DNA of 64,000 nucleotides from positions 1,867 through 65,866 of the forward strand of contig VRUE01000003.1 in assembly GCA_019456285.1 (NCBI GenBank). The letters run 5' to 3'. This stretch comes from Solirubrobacterales bacterium. Its GTDB lineage: Bacteria > Actinomycetota > Thermoleophilia > Solirubrobacterales > 70-9. Positions 22,438 to 58,073 of the stretch are shown in pieces. A model generated the notes under the pieces. That model ran no database searches. It saw only the letters and a list, made by a program, of their open reading frames with translations, and was not told the origin of the DNA. Positions within the stretch are counted from its first letter, which is position 1. Every line of letters starts with the position of its first letter. Made by a program: the position numbers and the translations under genes.

Positions 22438-22543
22438 CGGCCTGGCTGATCTTCTCGTCGGGCATGGGCGCACAAGGTTAAACGCCGCTGCGCGCCTGGA
22501 CTGAACGAAACGTCCCCTGATAGGCTTCCCCCAACATAAGCGC

Positions 22544-22658
22544 CACATCTAGAGGGGTGGAGGGACTGGCCCAGCGAAGCCCCGGCAACCACTCCGGACC
22601 ATTGGTTCGGAGAGAGGTGCCAAGTCCAGCAGGTCATCTGAAAGACCTGGGAGATGTG
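22544..22658 (+). promoter_or_regulatory. SAM-I (S-box) riboswitch aptamer
   Basis: CACATCTAGAGGGGTGGAGGGACTGGCCCAGCGAAGCCCCGGCAACC...GGTGCCAAGTCCAGCAGG...CCTGGGAGATGTG matches the S-box core blocks (AGAG.GG.GGAGGGACTGGCCC..GAA.CCCGGCAACC, GGTGC.AA.TCCAGCAG). P1 is CACATCT/AGATGTG. Confidence 0.9.
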
Positions 22659-22675
22659 GGGAAAGTCCGATCGGA

Positions 22676-26878: not shown

Positions 26879-26952
26879 CGCGCCCGACAGGATTCGAACC
26901 TGCGACTTCCAGCTCCGGAGGCTGGCGCTCTATCCAGCTGAGCTACGGGCGC
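26879..26952 (-). tRNA. tRNA-Arg (anticodon CCG), no encoded CCA
   Basis: The reverse complement GCGCCCGTAGCTCAGCTGGATAGAGCGCCAGCCTCCGGAGCTGGAAGTCGCAGGTTCGAATCCTGTCGGGCGCG folds as a cloverleaf: acceptor GCGCCCG/CGGGCGC, anticodon loop CTCCGGA, T-loop GGTTCGAATCC. The next bases are TCA, not CCA. Confidence 0.93.
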
Positions 26953-48658: not shown

Positions 48659-49933
48659 TTGAGCGCAGCCAGGCTCACCGAGCTGGGCTCGGGCGTCCGG
48701 GTCGTCACCGAGGAGGTTCCCTCGGTGCGATCCGTGGCGCTCGGCCTCTGGGTGCGCACAGGCTCGCGCAACGAGACCCCCGCCCGGGCGGGGGTCTCGC
48801 ACCTCCTCGAGCACCTGCTGTTCAAGGGGACGGCGCGCTTCTCGGCGATCGAGATCTCCGAGCGCCTCGACGGGCTCGGCGCCGCCGTGAACGCCGCCAC
48901 CGGCAAGGAGACGACCCACCTGCACGCCCGCTTCCTCGACGAGCACACCGAGGAGGTCTTCGACCTGCTGGCCGAGATGCTGCTCGCCCCGACCTACCCC
49001 GAGGTCGACTCCGAGCGCGAGGTCGTGCTGGAGGAGATCGCGATGTACGAGGACGAGCCGCAGGACCGCGTCCACGACTTCCTCGCCGGCGCGGTCTTCG
49101 GCAAACACCCTCTGGGTCGCCGCGTGCTGGGCGAGGCGGGGGTGATCGCCTCGATCCCGGTGCCGGAGATCGACGCCTACCACCGGGGCCGGTACACGGG
49201 CGCCAATGTCGTGGTCGGCGCCGCCGGCCATCTCGAGCACGAGCGGATCGCCGACCTGGCGGGTCGCTTGGTCTCTCCGCCCACTGACGGGACGGAGGCG
49301 GGACCCGTGGCCGAGCCGGACCAGTCGGCGCGGGTGCGCTTCCACGAGAAGGACACCGAGCAGTACCACATCTGCTTCGGCGCGCCCGGGATAACCCGCG
49401 CCGACGAGCGCCGTTATGCGCTGACCGTGCTCGACTCGATCTTCGGCGGCTCGACCTCGTCGCGCCTCTTCCGGGAGGTTCGCGAGAAGCGCGGCCTCGC
49501 CTACTCGATCGGTTCCTACAACGAGCTGTACACGGACTCGGGGCTGATCGCGACCTATGTCGGCACCCGCGAGGAGAACATCGAGGAGGCCTGCTCGATC
49601 ATCGGCGCCGAGCTGGAGCGGCTGCGCACCGAGCCGGTCTCCGCCGAGGAGCTGAGCCGCGCCAAGGAGAGCATCAAGGGCCGCCTCGTCCTCTCCTCGG
49701 AGTCGACATCGGCGCGGATGGCGCGGATCTCCCGCGTCACGCTGTTCGGGCTGCCGAGCGACACGCTGGACGAGATGCTCGTCAAGGTGGACGCCGTCAG
49801 CGTCGGGGACCTGACCGAGCTGGCCGCCGAGCTGTACGGGGCCGAGCGGCTTTCCGCCGCCTGCGTGGGGCGCGGCGAGGACTACTTCCGCAGGGCGCTG
49901 GCACCGGTCAGCGAAGCCCTGGTGGCGGCATGA
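48659..49933 (+). CDS. M16-family (pitrilysin-like) zinc peptidase
   Basis: GSR.E....AG.SHLLEHLLFKGT (HxxEH inverted zincin motif). TTG start 3 nt after the pnp TAA. Confidence 0.88.
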   Translation: MSAARLTELGSGVRVVTEEVPSVRSVALGLWVRTGSRNETPARAGVSHLLEHLLFKGTARFSAIEISERLDGLGAAVNAATGKETTHLHARFLDEHTEEVFDLLAEMLLAPTYPEVDSEREVVLEEIAMYEDEPQDRVHDFLAGAVFGKHPLGRRVLGEAGVIASIPVPEIDAYHRGRYTGANVVVGAAGHLEHERIADLAGRLVSPPTDGTEAGPVAEPDQSARVRFHEKDTEQYHICFGAPGITRADERRYALTVLDSIFGGSTSSRLFREVREKRGLAYSIGSYNELYTDSGLIATYVGTREENIEEACSIIGAELERLRTEPVSAEELSRAKESIKGRLVLSSESTSARMARISRVTLFGLPSDTLDEMLVKVDAVSVGDLTELAAELYGAERLSAACVGRGEDYFRRALAPVSEALVAA

Positions 49934-54811: not shown

Positions 54812-55513
54812 CTACTCCTTGAGCACGTAGCCGGCGCCGCGCTTGGTGTGGAGAAGGCGGGGCTCGCCGCCGGCCTCCAGCTTGCGGCGCAGGTTGGAGA
54901 CGAAGACGTCGACCGTGTTGGTCGCCGCCGTCGGGTCGTAGCCCCAGACCTCGTCGAGCAGCCGCTCCCGCGAGACCACGAGGCGCTCGTTGCGCATCAG
55001 GTGCTCGAGCAGCTCGAACTCGCGGTTGGTCAGCTCGACCTCCCGCTCGCCGTGCCGCACCTCGCGGGTGTCGGGGTTGAGCAGCAGGTCGCCGACGCTC
55101 AGCGTGGCGGCGCCGCGCGGCGGCCGGCGGCGCAGCAGGGCCCGGATCCGCGCCAGCAGCTCCCGCCGCTCGAACGGCTTCACCAGGTAGTCGTCGGCGC
55201 CGCTGTCGAGGCCGTCGACCCGGTCCTCGGTCTCCGTCCGCGCGGTCAGCATCAGGATCGGGACGTCGCTGTCGGCCCGCAGCCGCCGGCAGACCTCGAC
55301 CCCGTCGAGGCGCGGCAAGCCGAGGTCGAGCACGACGAGGTCGGGGGCGAAGCCGGCCGCGGCGTCGAGGGCGTCGATGCCGTCGGCCGCGGTGTGCACC
55401 TCGTAGCCCTCGCCGCGCAGCGAGCGTCGCAGCACGTCGGCGATCTCGGCGTCGTCCTCGACGACGAGCACCCGTCCCCCTGCCGGATCGGCGGTGACTG
55501 TCTGCATCGTCAC
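54812..55513 (-). CDS. OmpR/PhoB-family response regulator
   Basis: RVLVVEDD..I, DLVVLDLGLP..DG, ILMLTA, DDYL.KPF receiver motifs, plus a winged-helix C-terminal domain (LT.REFELLE.L..N...V.SRE.L...VWG). Confidence 0.93.
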   Translation of the reverse strand: MTMQTVTADPAGGRVLVVEDDAEIADVLRRSLRGEGYEVHTAADGIDALDAAAGFAPDLVVLDLGLPRLDGVEVCRRLRADSDVPILMLTARTETEDRVDGLDSGADDYLVKPFERRELLARIRALLRRRPPRGAATLSVGDLLLNPDTREVRHGEREVELTNREFELLEHLMRNERLVVSRERLLDEVWGYDPTAATNTVDVFVSNLRRKLEAGGEPRLLHTKRGAGYVLKE

Positions 55514-55528
55514 CGATCTTAGCCTGGT

Positions 55529-55645
55529 GGGAACGGGGGCAGGCAGGGGTTCCGCTTAACTTTTTCGCCGGGAACGGGGCGTCTCTCGCCAAATCGCCGG
55601 TGCGAAAAAGTACAAGACGCTTCACCCCCACCTGCCCCCGTTCCC
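55529..55645. repeat. family-2 palindromic element, unit 1 (117 nt)
   Basis: The outer stem GGGAACGGGGGCAGG (55529-55543) pairs with CCTGCCCCCGTTCCC (55631-55645), 15 bp perfect. The cores are GGGGTTCCGCTTAACTTTTTCG (55546-55567) and CGAAAAAGTACAAGACGCT (55603-55621). Confidence 0.85.
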
Positions 55646-55665
55646 TGAAGCTGGCGTGGGGCTGG

Positions 55666-55777
55666 GGGGCGGATCGGGTGGGGGTTCCGCTTAACTTTTT
55701 CGGTGGGCCTTTGGGAACTGGCTGTGGGCGGATTGCCGAAAAAGTACAAGACGCTCCACCCTCACCCGATCCGCCCC
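55666..55777. repeat. family-2 palindromic element, unit 2 (112 nt)
   Basis: The outer stem GGGGCGGATCGGGTG (55666-55680) pairs with CACCCGATCCGCCCC (55763-55777), 15 bp perfect. The cores at 55681-55702 and 55737-55755 are identical to those of unit 1. Confidence 0.85.
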
Positions 55778-55811
55778 ACGCGGGGCCGGGCAGATTCGCG
55801 TCTGAGGCTGG

Positions 55812-55856
55812 TGCGTTCGCACTTCTGCCCGCATACCGGGAAGAAGTGCGAACGCA
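55812..55856. repeat. 15 bp perfect hairpin 27 nt upstream of the ftsK start
   Basis: TGCGTTCGCACTTCT (55812-55826), a 15 nt loop, then AGAAGTGCGAACGCA (55842-55856). Confidence 0.8.
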
Positions 55857-55883
55857 GGGCTGGTGGGGCGGGCGTCGAAACGG

Positions 55884-58073
55884 ATGAGCATGTTCGTGCG
55901 TAAGAAGCGCGGGGCGTCTGCGCGGCGATCCAAGGGGAAGGCGAGAGCGAAGCCTCGCCTGCCGAGGCCGCACCTGCCGCATCGCCTCGAGCAGCGGCAT
56001 CTGGACCTGATCGGGCTCTTCCTGATCGCCGCTGGCGTCTACCTCACCTTTGTCCTCTTCTTCGGCTGGGACGGCGGCAAGGTCGGCTACGGGGTCGAGA
56101 CCGGCCTCGCCTACCTGTTCGGCGAAGCGGGGGCGCGGATCGCGACTGTGCTGATGCTCGTGATCGGCGGCGTGCTGGTGACCGGGACCTCGATCTCGGC
56201 GATCTTCCGCGGTCTCGGCCGGGGCCTGCGCCGTGCCTTCCTCGGCGGGCGCGGAGTGACGCAGACACTGGCCAAGAGCCGCGACGCTCGCCGCGAGGCG
56301 AAGACGTCCGCCTTCGAGACCCGGGCCGGGCCGACCGACGTGATGAGCGCCTACCCCGACGAGGACAAGCTCGAACCGACGGTCGCCCCGGCCGACAACG
56401 AGTTCGACCACGATGTCTACGACAGCGCTGGCGACGAAATCGCAGATCAGGCGGGTCAAGGTTTCCAGGGCGACGGCTCATCTGCCGGCGGCGGACGCGG
56501 AGCGGGGCAGCCGCCGGGTGATCAGGACCCCGATGACCGCCCCGAGGCGCCTTCCCTGACCCCGATGGGCCAGAAGCGCGGCGTCACCACCTCCGAGGAG
56601 ATCGACTACCGGCCGCCCCCCGCCAAGGTGCTGGAGAAGGGCCGCAGCGACAGGGGGCCCGACCGGCACGACCACGAGGCGGTCAGCCGCAAGCTGGTCG
56701 AGGCACTCGGCCACTTCGGGGTCGAGGCGAAGATCGTCGGAATCGTCAGCGGCCCCCACGTCTCCCGCTACGAGCTGCGGCTGGCGCCCGGCACCAAGGT
56801 GAAGAAGGTGACCGAGCTGGCCAACGACCTCGCCTACGCGCTGGCCTCCACGGAGATCCGCATCCTGGCGCCGATCCCCGGCAAGCAGGCGGTCGGGGTC
56901 GAGGTGCCGAACACGCGCCGCCGCATCGTCCGGCTCGGCGACATCTACGCGGGCCGCCCGGAGAAGACCTCGCCGCTGGTCGCCTGGCTGGGCAGGGGGA
57001 TCGACGGCAACGCGGTCTGGACCGACCTGGCGAAGATGCCCCACGTACTGGTCGCCGGCACGACCGGCTCGGGCAAGTCGGGATGCGTCAACGCGATCCT
57101 CTCCTCGATCCTGATGCAGGCCTCGCCCAACGACGTGCGCCTGGTGCTGGTCGACCCGAAGCAGGTCGAGCTGAACCACTATGAGCACGTGCCGCACCTG
57201 CTGACGCCGGTCGTCACCTCGCCGCGCCTCGCCGCCAACGTGCTCGCCAACCTGATCGGCGAGATGGAGAGCCGCTACGGGATCATGGGCGAGGCGCGCT
57301 GCCGCAACCTCAGCGAGCTGAACCGGGCCCGGGCGAAGACGGGCGAGGCGTCGCTGCCCCACGTCCTCTGCGTGATCGACGAGCTCGCCGACCTGATGAT
57401 GGTCGCCCCGGCCGAGGTCGAGGACTCGATCATCCGGCTCGCCCAGAAGTCTCGCGCCACCGGCATCCACCTGGTGCTGGCGACGCAGCGGCCCTCCACC
57501 GACATCATCACCGGCACGATCAAGGTCAACATTCCGGCCCGGATCGCCTTCGCCGTCTCCTCGCAGACCGACTCGCGGGTGATCCTCGACCAGGGCGGGG
57601 CGGAGGCCCTGCTCGGGCAGGGCGACATGCTCTTCCGCGGCGCCGGGACCTCGAAGCTGCAGCGGATCCAGGGGGCGTTCGTCACCGAGGACGAGATTGC
57701 CCGGATCACCACCCACTGGGCCAAGCAGGGGGAGCCGGAGTTCGAGGCGGAGCTGCTGGAGTCCCGCGAGGAGGTCGCCGACGAGGGCGCCGAGGGCGAT
57801 TTCGATCCCGACAGCGACGATTTGCTCGACGAGGCAATCCGCCTCGCGGTGCAGACCGAGACCGCCTCGGTCTCGATGATCCAGCGCCGCCTCCGGGTCG
57901 GCTACACGCGGGCGGGCCGCCTGATCGACATGCTGGAGCGGCGCGGCGTGATCTCCGGCTACGAAGGCTCGAAGCCGCGCCAGGTGCTGATCACCGAGGC
58001 CGATCTCGCCCGCGTCATCGGGCCCGAGACCCCCAACGAGCCCGTCGGGGTCGACGCCGAGGACACCGCGTAG
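55884..58073 (+). CDS. ftsK: DNA translocase FtsK/SpoIIIE
   Basis: N-terminal TM helices and a low-complexity linker. Motor domain with PH.LVAGTTGSGKS (Walker A), a DELADLMM region, and a gamma winged-helix (S.S..QR.L..GY.RA.RL.D.LE..G..S). Start at ATG 55884, downstream of the hairpin. Confidence 0.93.
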   Translation: MSMFVRKKRGASARRSKGKARAKPRLPRPHLPHRLEQRHLDLIGLFLIAAGVYLTFVLFFGWDGGKVGYGVETGLAYLFGEAGARIATVLMLVIGGVLVTGTSISAIFRGLGRGLRRAFLGGRGVTQTLAKSRDARREAKTSAFETRAGPTDVMSAYPDEDKLEPTVAPADNEFDHDVYDSAGDEIADQAGQGFQGDGSSAGGGRGAGQPPGDQDPDDRPEAPSLTPMGQKRGVTTSEEIDYRPPPAKVLEKGRSDRGPDRHDHEAVSRKLVEALGHFGVEAKIVGIVSGPHVSRYELRLAPGTKVKKVTELANDLAYALASTEIRILAPIPGKQAVGVEVPNTRRRIVRLGDIYAGRPEKTSPLVAWLGRGIDGNAVWTDLAKMPHVLVAGTTGSGKSGCVNAILSSILMQASPNDVRLVLVDPKQVELNHYEHVPHLLTPVVTSPRLAANVLANLIGEMESRYGIMGEARCRNLSELNRARAKTGEASLPHVLCVIDELADLMMVAPAEVEDSIIRLAQKSRATGIHLVLATQRPSTDIITGTIKVNIPARIAFAVSSQTDSRVILDQGGAEALLGQGDMLFRGAGTSKLQRIQGAFVTEDEIARITTHWAKQGEPEFEAELLESREEVADEGAEGDFDPDSDDLLDEAIRLAVQTETASVSMIQRRLRVGYTRAGRLIDMLERRGVISGYEGSKPRQVLITEADLARVIGPETPNEPVGVDAEDTA

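Follow-up and report, generated by a model that had tools for sequence, protein, structure and literature searches.

INTRODUCTION

Several kinds of short palindromic repeat are dispersed through bacterial genomes. The repetitive extragenic palindromes (REP), REPINs, and bacterial interspersed mosaic elements (BIME) of proteobacteria are short non-coding intergenic palindromes that often abut stop codons, form hairpins in the single strand, lack target-site duplications, and cluster in tandem and in alternating orientation; REP/REPIN are lineage specific yet conserved over long times. The Rickettsia palindromic elements (RPE) are ancient palindromes of 100–150 bp that have no known transposase, are found in all stages of decay, and occur both between genes and in frame within protein-coding genes, to which they add a peptide segment. 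Palindrome-associated transposable elements (PATEs) derived from IS200/IS605, and HUH substrates in general, are hairpin based, leave no target-site duplication, and have irregular hairpin bases as possible recognition marks. MITEs (miniature inverted-repeat transposable elements), including Correia, ERIC, and MITEAba12, are small, non-autonomous, palindromic, intergenic, and multi-copy. All these traits recur in a repeat that we describe here from a Solirubrobacterales bacterium. Two copies of it, units 1 and 2, lie between an OmpR-type response regulator gene and ftsK in a 64,000-nucleotide stretch of contig VRUE01000003.1 (hereafter, the window). The Solirubrobacterales, abundant bacteria of soil, have hardly been studied, and we know of no repeat families described for them.

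RESULTS

The preliminary description of this locus had proposed a search for the cores of the two units in relatives. We scanned one genome per species for exact matches to an 18-mer of the left core, TTCCGCTTAACTTTTTCG. At least 118 loci were obtained, all but one of which (L002, a chance match) carry the element. The carriers among the matches listed were nearly all metagenome-assembled genomes (MAGs) of Solirubrobacterales or Conexibacteraceae, often with several copies per genome. A total of 111 distinct complete copies could be aligned gap-free in the arms, and the right core was nearly invariant in them though it had not been used in the search. A covariance model was built from this alignment (family pattern TTCCRCTTAACTTTTT ... 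AAAAAGYRCAAGAC). In the window, it detected units 1 and 2 as the only family copies, with 101.7 bits (55528-55646, E 3.7e-22) and 109.4 bits (55663-55780, E 5.6e-24), respectively. In the 763 kb of fetched loci, it found ~16 extra copies without the exact seed, ~11 of them independent, which suggests a density of roughly one site per 50–70 kb in carrier genomes. We read the two units as independent copies, arranged in tandem, of a previously undescribed family of dispersed palindromic repeats of ~115–122 bp, present in a subset of Solirubrobacterales (Thermoleophilia).

No description of the repeat was found in the literature searched. Rfam gave nothing relevant in the element region at gathering or permissive thresholds; the sub-threshold matches there were to microRNA-precursor and other unrelated eukaryotic models, that is, generic long hairpins. 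Plasmid BLAST gave no match to the repeat, and no genuine copy was found in viral contigs, where the longer left-core pattern had 0 matches and the left core had 1 chance match; 36 uninspected matches to a 16-mer of the right core are presumed to be chance. A full copy (100 bits) was observed in L047 (JBLMYD010000045.1), on a contig of a MAG labelled Chloroflexota. The contig has probably been binned wrongly, since the flanks of this copy are like those of loci L008 and L036 of Solirubrobacterales.

All aligned copies follow one plan, consisting of an outer stem of ~21 bp, an asymmetric AT-rich core (TTCCGCTTAACTTTTTCG / CGAAAAAGTACAAGACGCTCCA), and a variable apex of 28–40 nt. From the base, the hairpin comprises the outer stem, a short helix (CGCTT/AAG(a)CG), an A/T helix (ACTTTTTCG/CGAAAAAGT), and the apex, which falls into a few recurrent types, e.g., ..GGCCGTCCGAG.. 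and ..GCTGGCGCC... The length of the outer stem is uniform (median 21 bp, mostly 18–24). Outward from the core, the first 4 pairs (GGGG/CCCC) are conserved, the next 8 are semi-conserved (CCCGGYAGGGG), and the distal 8–10 are variable. A distant hairpin family (L073:444-564, minus strand; L004:3877-3996, plus strand) was also observed that shares only the A/T helix TTTTTCG/CGAAAAAG and an apical GCCGTCCGAGAT, a motif that may matter in its own right.

Covariation was strong in all helices. Over the whole structure, 96.4% of cells were paired, and both-side changes were counted in 644 cells compared with 186 ± 13 in shuffles, none of 500 shuffles reaching 644. In the outer stem, 19 of 21 pairs covary, the distal 8–10 bp heavily, and pairing collapsed to ~45% in controls with slid partners. 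Compensation extends into the core in the model-found copies that lack the seed: TTCCACTT occurs with AAGACGTT in 8 copies (G-C to A-T), with three G·T intermediates, and CTTTTTCT/AGAAAAAG, TTTTTGCG/CGCAAAAA, and T4/A4 were also found. The P3 variants were compensated as well.

The window contains exactly two occurrences of the left core GGGGTTCCGCTTAACTTTTTCG and two of the right core CGAAAAAGTACAAGACGCT, where chance would give none, in agreement with the earlier view of two tandem units with identical cores. Because the window is ~70% G+C, these cores are conspicuously AT-rich. The pairing of CTTTTTCG with CGAAAAAG within each unit was borne out by the inverted-repeat arms. Conservation reaches beyond the cores as first given: the right repeat extends over 30 nt at 93%, and GGGG/CCCC beside the cores is also conserved. 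The region previously taken for a conserved asymmetric internal loop is mostly helical, with CGCUU pairing with AAG(a)CG, followed by ACUUUUUCG/CGAAAAAGU, and contains only small bulges. The outer arms of unit 1 (22 nt, 91% complementary) and unit 2 (20 nt, 95%) do differ in sequence, as had been noted. The perfect outer stems first called unrelated are two points in a continuum in which many copies share the sub-family stem RGRGCCNRTCCCGGYAGGGG; the stem of unit 2 is similar to that of the same-site copy in L120. Each unit folded into a single long hairpin on either strand, far better than shuffles, with z scores of about -7 using RNA or DNA parameters (-6.9 and -7.1, respectively, for unit 1).

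The preliminary description had also proposed a structured RNA with a switch, in which the 3' arm pairs either with the 5' arm or with an apical duplicate of it. The duplicates, GGGAACGGGG (55529/55570) and GGGCGGAT (55667/55726), are indeed present, but they are not a property of the element. Among the 111 copies, the longest match between an arm and its own apex averaged 4.61 nt compared with 4.54 ± 0.08 nt in permuted pairings, i.e., it was no longer than the match to the apices of other copies. The two window units are outliers in this respect, with matches of 10 and 8 nt (P(≥8) = 0.011 and P(≥10) = 0.0007 for cross-pairs), which may be due to chance or to template switching at this locus. 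Copies whose stems are quite different, e.g., L017 and L120, share the GGGAACGGG type of apex with unit 1. When the apical copy was forced onto the 3' arm, the fold cost +31.4 and +35.3 kcal/mol relative to the minimum, so a thermodynamic switch is not credible. A riboswitch-like RNA with two folds was rejected because the competing helices are not of comparable stability and the apical arm copy is not conserved in the family; the base-pair statistics given below and the lack of an Rfam match also speak against it.

We next considered whether pairing is maintained at the RNA or the DNA level. In stem columns 5–23, 24 of 2109 cells were G·U (1.1%) and 50 were A·C (2.4%). An RNA helix under selection accepts G·U much more readily than A·C. 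The lower frequency of G·U and the almost perfect Watson-Crick pairing of the ~21-bp stems therefore favor the DNA level. The same conclusion is favored by the lack of a consistent transcript position, U-tail, dedicated promoter, or regulon, and by one in-frame copy that is antisense to its gene.

Copies were found in four states: intact, diverged with the structure kept, center-deleted, and decayed. The in-frame antisense copy lies in gene X, which encodes a hypothetical membrane protein and is located next to hemQ. In P0008, P0009, and P0021, homologues of comparable identity, the insert is absent and ..AGKG runs directly into FVVR... The intact insert of 40 codons, found in L058, P0001, P0003, and P0070, is the entire palindrome including the distal stem, whereas P0006 carries a diverged insert and P0022 and P0040 carry decayed ones. 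In the diverged copy of L236, letters of the "core" are changed and a hairpin is still formed via several compensated changes. This series indicates that the arriving unit is the whole palindrome and that copies can decay. The outer stems thus arrive with the insert, and no evidence was obtained for the earlier suggestion of an insertion element that targets hairpins. Ascertainment accounts in part for the near-perfect conservation of the core in the first data set, since the loci were found by an exact core match. Gene callers split gene X or cut it short at the insert, and P0023 begins just after it.

The presence of the element at the ftsK site was evaluated in 80 orthologous ftsK loci fetched from metagenomes. 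The element was located directly upstream of ftsK in 4 of the 80 loci. In the same regulator-ftsK spacer, one other locus had a copy beside the regulator gene and one had a center-deleted remnant; the remaining 74 had neither copy nor remnant. Outside the spacer, ~355 kb of these loci contained zero copies. No occupied and empty ftsK loci were close enough to fix the insertion boundaries, the best relatives being ~83% identical. In other lineages, three other palindrome families, also found elsewhere, occupy the same spot between a conserved TTTACCGCGAATTTAGG motif and GCGCAGGGG...GTCGAAGCGG, and the regulator-ftsK spacer seems to collect hairpin repeats. One of these, a second palindrome family (GCTGACTTCGTSGTTT...AAASACGAAGTCAGC), lies ~50–150 nt upstream of ftsK in L147, L150, L151, L164, L166, L167, and L177 and also occurs at L106:4564-4612. 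Two small families, CTTCGTTGAAGC-TTTT...AAAAGCTTCAACGAAG and GGTTCCTTA...TAAGGAACC, were observed upstream of ftsK in L142, L148, L151, L156, L160, and L164, and elsewhere at L132:310-345 and 2596-2631 and at L063:5429-5464.

At 10 loci, a full copy has a truncated left half 0–15 nt upstream of it, oriented the same way (Table 1). The truncation falls at TTAAC or TTAACTT(T) or follows the T-run, and the arm of these halves is often like that of the neighbor; no solitary right halves were found. The full-plus-full tandem of the window is the intact version of this partial-plus-full arrangement. Among neighboring copies within 8 kb, 15 pairs were inverted (Table 1) and 3 were direct (L017, L089, and L111). 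In several inverted pairs, a single gene lies between the two copies (e.g., rpe in L055 and a gene for a membrane protein in L006), and some pairs are 140–1200 bp apart. The truncated tandems and inverted pairs suggest local copying with a defined polarity, possibly with a break point after TTAAC. Thirteen pairs without a shared neighboring gene, counted as non-orthologous, were at least 75% identical in the variable columns. For pairs within one genome (n = 42), the maximum identity in these columns was 0.70 and the median was 0.42.

The genomic context was counted with a crude gene caller for high-GC DNA based on G+C at third codon positions (GC3). Nearly all copies were intergenic: 43 in co-directional spacers (element sense in 34, antisense in 9), 31 in convergent spacers, and 21 in divergent spacers. 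Many apparent in-gene copies proved to be artefacts of the open reading frame (ORF) caller, e.g., an antisense reading of the hemQ N-terminus, and gene X was the only case that survived homologue alignment. Flanking stop codons often lie at the stem base or within the stem, and some are supplied by the element (TAG in GGTAGGGG, TAA in CTTAAC). The neighbors are housekeeping genes, among them hemC, hemL, hemQ, ftsK, rsmG, mreB, clpP, pfk, metK, ndk, and trmD. Pfam assigned 119 families to 94 neighbor proteins, with no regulon and no enrichment of a gene class; among them were one Phage_integrase and no Y1_Tnp, a count that refers to element-centered loci. Adjacent direct repeats were not enriched at the copies, and no conserved flank or promoter was found, the left flank being merely G-rich. 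No U-tail or T-run follows the 3' arm, and a terminator scan returned only two spurious internal sites.

The features of the window and the loci mentioned above are listed in Table 1. Pfam domains confirmed the identity of the flanking regulator and ftsK genes. The start codon of the regulator gene is 16 nt from unit 1, and no sigma-70-type promoter was found in the regulator/ftsK spacer. Beside the regulator gene, relatives carry another conserved AT-rich motif, TTTACCGCGAATTTAGG, that is absent from the window. In relatives such as L120, L134, L170, and L175, in which the regulator gene adjoins ftsK, a conserved AT-rich (G/A)ATTTACCGCGAATTTAGG motif was observed ~30–40 nt from the regulator start codon. 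It is absent from 55514-55862 of the window, where the repeats occupy its place, and the promoters of the regulator gene and ftsK must therefore be arranged differently there. Almost all ftsK loci (L120-L199) also show conservation at the DNA level upstream of their annotated ATG, in the form of GCGCAGGGG(A/T)G followed after ~12 nt by GTCGAAGCGG. Its place is the last ~45 nt before ftsK ATGTTCGTGCG (55855-55895 in the window), and it represents either a true start further upstream (GTG at 55863 in the window) or a conserved leader.

A third palindrome, not of this family, lies between unit 2 and ftsK. It is flanked by GGCTGGTG on both sides and gave a DNA fold z of -8.1, without a match to the covariance model. 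It did not occur at a comparable site in 1.3 Mb of related DNA, where the sole other match to its arm is inside the regulator gene of L022. At the corresponding place, L015 and L022 have hairpins of 4–6 bp only. Elsewhere in the window, a GC-rich loopless palindrome with 18-bp arms (GGTGCGAGACCCCCGCCC/GGGCGGGGGTCTCGTTGC) was observed near a gene boundary at 48768-48803; it gave a weak model match to the outer stem only and may be a terminator-like hairpin. The only above-threshold Rfam matches in the window were a SAM-I riboswitch (22542-22660, plus strand, 85 bits) and a tRNA gene (26879-26952, minus strand).

Table 1. Positions of the repeat units and neighboring features in the window, and loci of in-gene, truncated, and inverted copies
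Feature	Position or loci	Strand	Remarks
Unit 1	55529..55645	+	Complete repeat copy; arms, fold, covariance-model match
Unit 1 parts	5' arm 55529-55550; left core 55546-55567; apex 55568-55602; right core 55603-55621; 3' arm 55624-55645		
Inter-unit spacer	55646..55665		20 nt; tandem copies, same orientation
Unit 2	55666..55777	+	Complete repeat copy; arms, covariance-model match
Unit 2 parts	5' arm 55666-55685; left core 55681-55702; apex 55703-55736; right core 55737-55755; 3' arm 55758-55777		
OmpR-type response regulator gene	54812..55513	-	Pfam Response_reg, Trans_reg_C; context, outside the element
Regulator/ftsK divergent spacer	55514-55862		349 bp; holds both units
Third palindrome	55812..55856		Non-family; 20-bp arms, 5-nt loop, one mismatch; directly upstream of the ftsK ribosome-binding site
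ftsK	55863..58073	+	Pfam FtsK_alpha, FtsK_SpoIIIE, FtsK_gamma; context, outside the element
In-gene copies	L058:1748-1865, L035:4121-4238, L043:1402-1522, L065:1830-1950, L101:7509-7626, L236		
Truncated left halves	L011, L014, L016, L044, L083, L119, L198, L097, L111, L073		
Inverted pairs	L004, L006, L009, L014, L019, L035, L042, L043, L055, L058, L065, L071, L087, L090, L116		

DISCUSSION

In this study, we described a family of long hairpin repeats with a conserved asymmetric core. Our favored reading, held with moderate confidence, is that of a dispersed palindromic repeat of the REP/REPIN or RPE type that is spread and maintained at the DNA level. Both its spread and the upkeep of its palindromy would occur on DNA. 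The hairpin, probably extruded from single-stranded DNA, would be recognized via the conserved asymmetric AT-rich core by a putative trans-acting protein; the arms would regain their complementarity through selection for this recognition, through template switching within the strand as it is replicated, or through both. In the window, the copies most probably reside passively in a zone between the regulator gene and ftsK that tolerates insertions. Transcripts that cross them will, according to the folding model, carry very stable hairpins.

By analogy, the family appears to work like REP/REPIN or RPE, and it lacks features that define REPIN-RAYT systems, MITEs, and IS200/IS605 derivatives. Its extragenic palindromes occur singly, in tandem, and inverted, as do those of REP. 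The differences from REP/REPIN lie in a single hairpin of ~120 nt with a bulged asymmetric AT-rich conserved core, in which the distal stem and the apex are the most variable parts, and in a copy number of tens rather than hundreds. Within a genome, copies are never near-identical, and the near-identical population around a master sequence that characterizes REPINs was not seen in the 42 pairs. No flanking RAYT was seen in the element-centered loci, and no conserved 5' tetranucleotide is present outside the hairpin. The combination of intergenic copies and an in-frame insertion is of the same kind as in RPE; however, the family is found in another phylum, we claim no relationship at the sequence level, verification covers a single intragenic site, and the pairing of the arms is much better preserved. 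The truncated left halves that end at or after TTAAC recall cleavage beside a short specific motif in PATEs and other HUH substrates. By contrast with PATEs, the repeat has no conserved target motif in the left flank and no uniform orientation along the chromosome arm; it forms a single hairpin where PATEs have a distinct one at the left and at the right end, and neither TnpA nor TnpB lies nearby. An IS200/IS605-type element was rejected since the left flank has no fixed motif and is only G-rich and since an orientation tied to the lagging-strand template does not fit neighboring copies that are mostly inverted.

The preliminary description had listed a miniature insertion element among its suggestions. 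This stands insofar as the repeat is a dispersed multi-copy palindrome with present, absent, and decayed states at orthologous sites, but not for the usual terminal inverted repeats and target-site duplications. MITEs have conserved terminal inverted repeats and target-site duplications of fixed length, whereas in this repeat conservation is lowest at the termini and a duplication is absent. A MITE derived from a DDE transposon was rejected for the lack of a target-site duplication and the variability of the distal 8–10 bp, and no longer element with these ends was seen. Two other known structures were also considered and rejected. An intrinsic terminator would require a T-run after the 3' arm, which is missing. 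For an integron attC site, GCTTAAC fits RYYYAAC by eye, but its partner is GTACAAG and not GTTRRRY; moreover, the motif lies ~21 bp inside the stem, and the copies are scattered among housekeeping genes and not in cassette arrays.

Several observations weigh against a mobile repeat maintained on DNA. The termini are its least conserved part. No transposase or RAYT recurred near the copies among 765 predicted proteins of 117 element-centered loci, and target-site duplications were absent: the longest common substring of the 12-nt flanks was 3.27 in own pairs and 3.27 in permuted pairs. As no within-genome pair exceeded 70% identity in the variable columns, there was no sign of recent bursts. 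Many of the "empty" ftsK loci may belong to lineages that lack the family altogether. Intact cores were found at orthologous sites of diverged genomes (hemA-hemC, hemL, ftsK, and rsmG), which look like the result of purifying selection and would favor a host function, although this is partly ascertainment. The excess of sense over antisense copies in co-directional pairs also fits a role as RNA. Finally, the GC3 skew of the element strand had a component independent of gene direction of +0.019 (95% CI 0.010-0.029; +0.021 in the window), and this weak replication-like skew hinted at an orientation set by replication. Replication direction cannot be the rule, however, since copies along a chromosome differ in orientation and 15 of 18 neighbor pairs within 8 kb are inverted.

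Part of this evidence would be expected if the repeat were a structured RNA module within mRNAs. In untranslated or intercistronic regions, a protein-binding hairpin could set 3' ends, block exonucleases, or be cut by a double-strand-specific RNase, with the bulged AT-rich core as the protein-recognition site and the long stem as a generic helix. The strong covariation in all helices, the ratio of 34 sense to 9 antisense copies, the stop codons of upstream genes at the stem base or inside the stem, and the intact cores at the orthologous sites are all consistent with such a module. Nevertheless, we consider it rather unlikely. The scarcity of G·U relative to A·C and near-perfect Watson-Crick stems of ~21 bp would be unusual under selection on RNA, and decayed copies exist. 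Moreover, 22% of the copies lie between divergent genes and 33% between convergent genes without a consistent position in a transcript, 9 copies are antisense to both neighbors, and a conserved one lies antisense within a coding region. The lack of a U-tail, an Rfam family, and an enriched gene class points in the same direction.

The pairing by Watson-Crick pairs only and the conservation of an asymmetric core across an order would be consistent with a third possibility, in which the host has exapted the repeat as a DNA site. By analogy with gyrase or IHF binding at BIMEs, or with single-strand initiation signals, a hairpin, a cruciform, or a phased pair of A-tracts might be bound by a chromosome-organizing protein or a replication/repair protein. 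The sparse and roughly regular spacing of ~1 per 50–70 kb and the weak replication-like GC3 skew would fit this possibility. It is nonetheless improbable in our judgment, because most orthologous sites have no copy, decayed copies exist, and neighboring copies are mostly inverted and hence have no uniform polarity. In addition, tandem and truncated copies resemble by-products of copying and not placed sites, and no candidate protein is known. The position of the units in a divergent spacer had also led to the idea of an operator, or another locus-specific regulatory structure, for the adjacent OmpR-type regulator or ftsK. Apart from this position, nothing in the data favors the idea, and the way in which the element is distributed refutes it. 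The element is dispersed beside more than 100 unrelated genes and neighbor gene families, it is absent from most regulator-ftsK spacers of relatives, with neither copy nor remnant in 74 of the 80 orthologous ftsK loci, and the TTTACCGCGAATTTAGG motif that relatives have beside the regulator gene is lacking in the window. The DNA-level repeat related in kind to REP/REPIN and RPE thus remains our preferred reading.

The family has consequences for the annotation of these genomes. It repeatedly gives rise to false "riboswitch," "sRNA," and "miRNA-like" calls and to gene-calling errors, in which ORFs are split or extended through the element; it may also serve as a marker for contig binning in carrier lineages. 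The insert in gene X indicates that in-frame insertion of palindromes into genes is not peculiar to Rickettsia. The family offers a clean, alignable long hairpin, in which the core is strictly asymmetric and the arms around it covary freely, as a testbed for separating selection on RNA, selection on DNA, and template-switch mutation. It also points to a missing trans-acting partner. Tentatively, the repeat may be the substrate of an unrecognized hairpin-specific DNA enzyme in Actinomycetota that reads the bulged AT-rich core and nicks after TTAAC; a domesticated HUH/RAYT-like nuclease or another recombinase could be a candidate. On a par with this possibility, the family could represent a new widespread class of structured RNA. 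If the enzyme exists, it would explain the one-sided truncated copies, the clustering, and the presence of an order-wide asymmetric core inside freely covarying stems, and the family would be a "replicator within the genome" of the REPIN-RAYT type, outside proteobacteria and with a different architecture.

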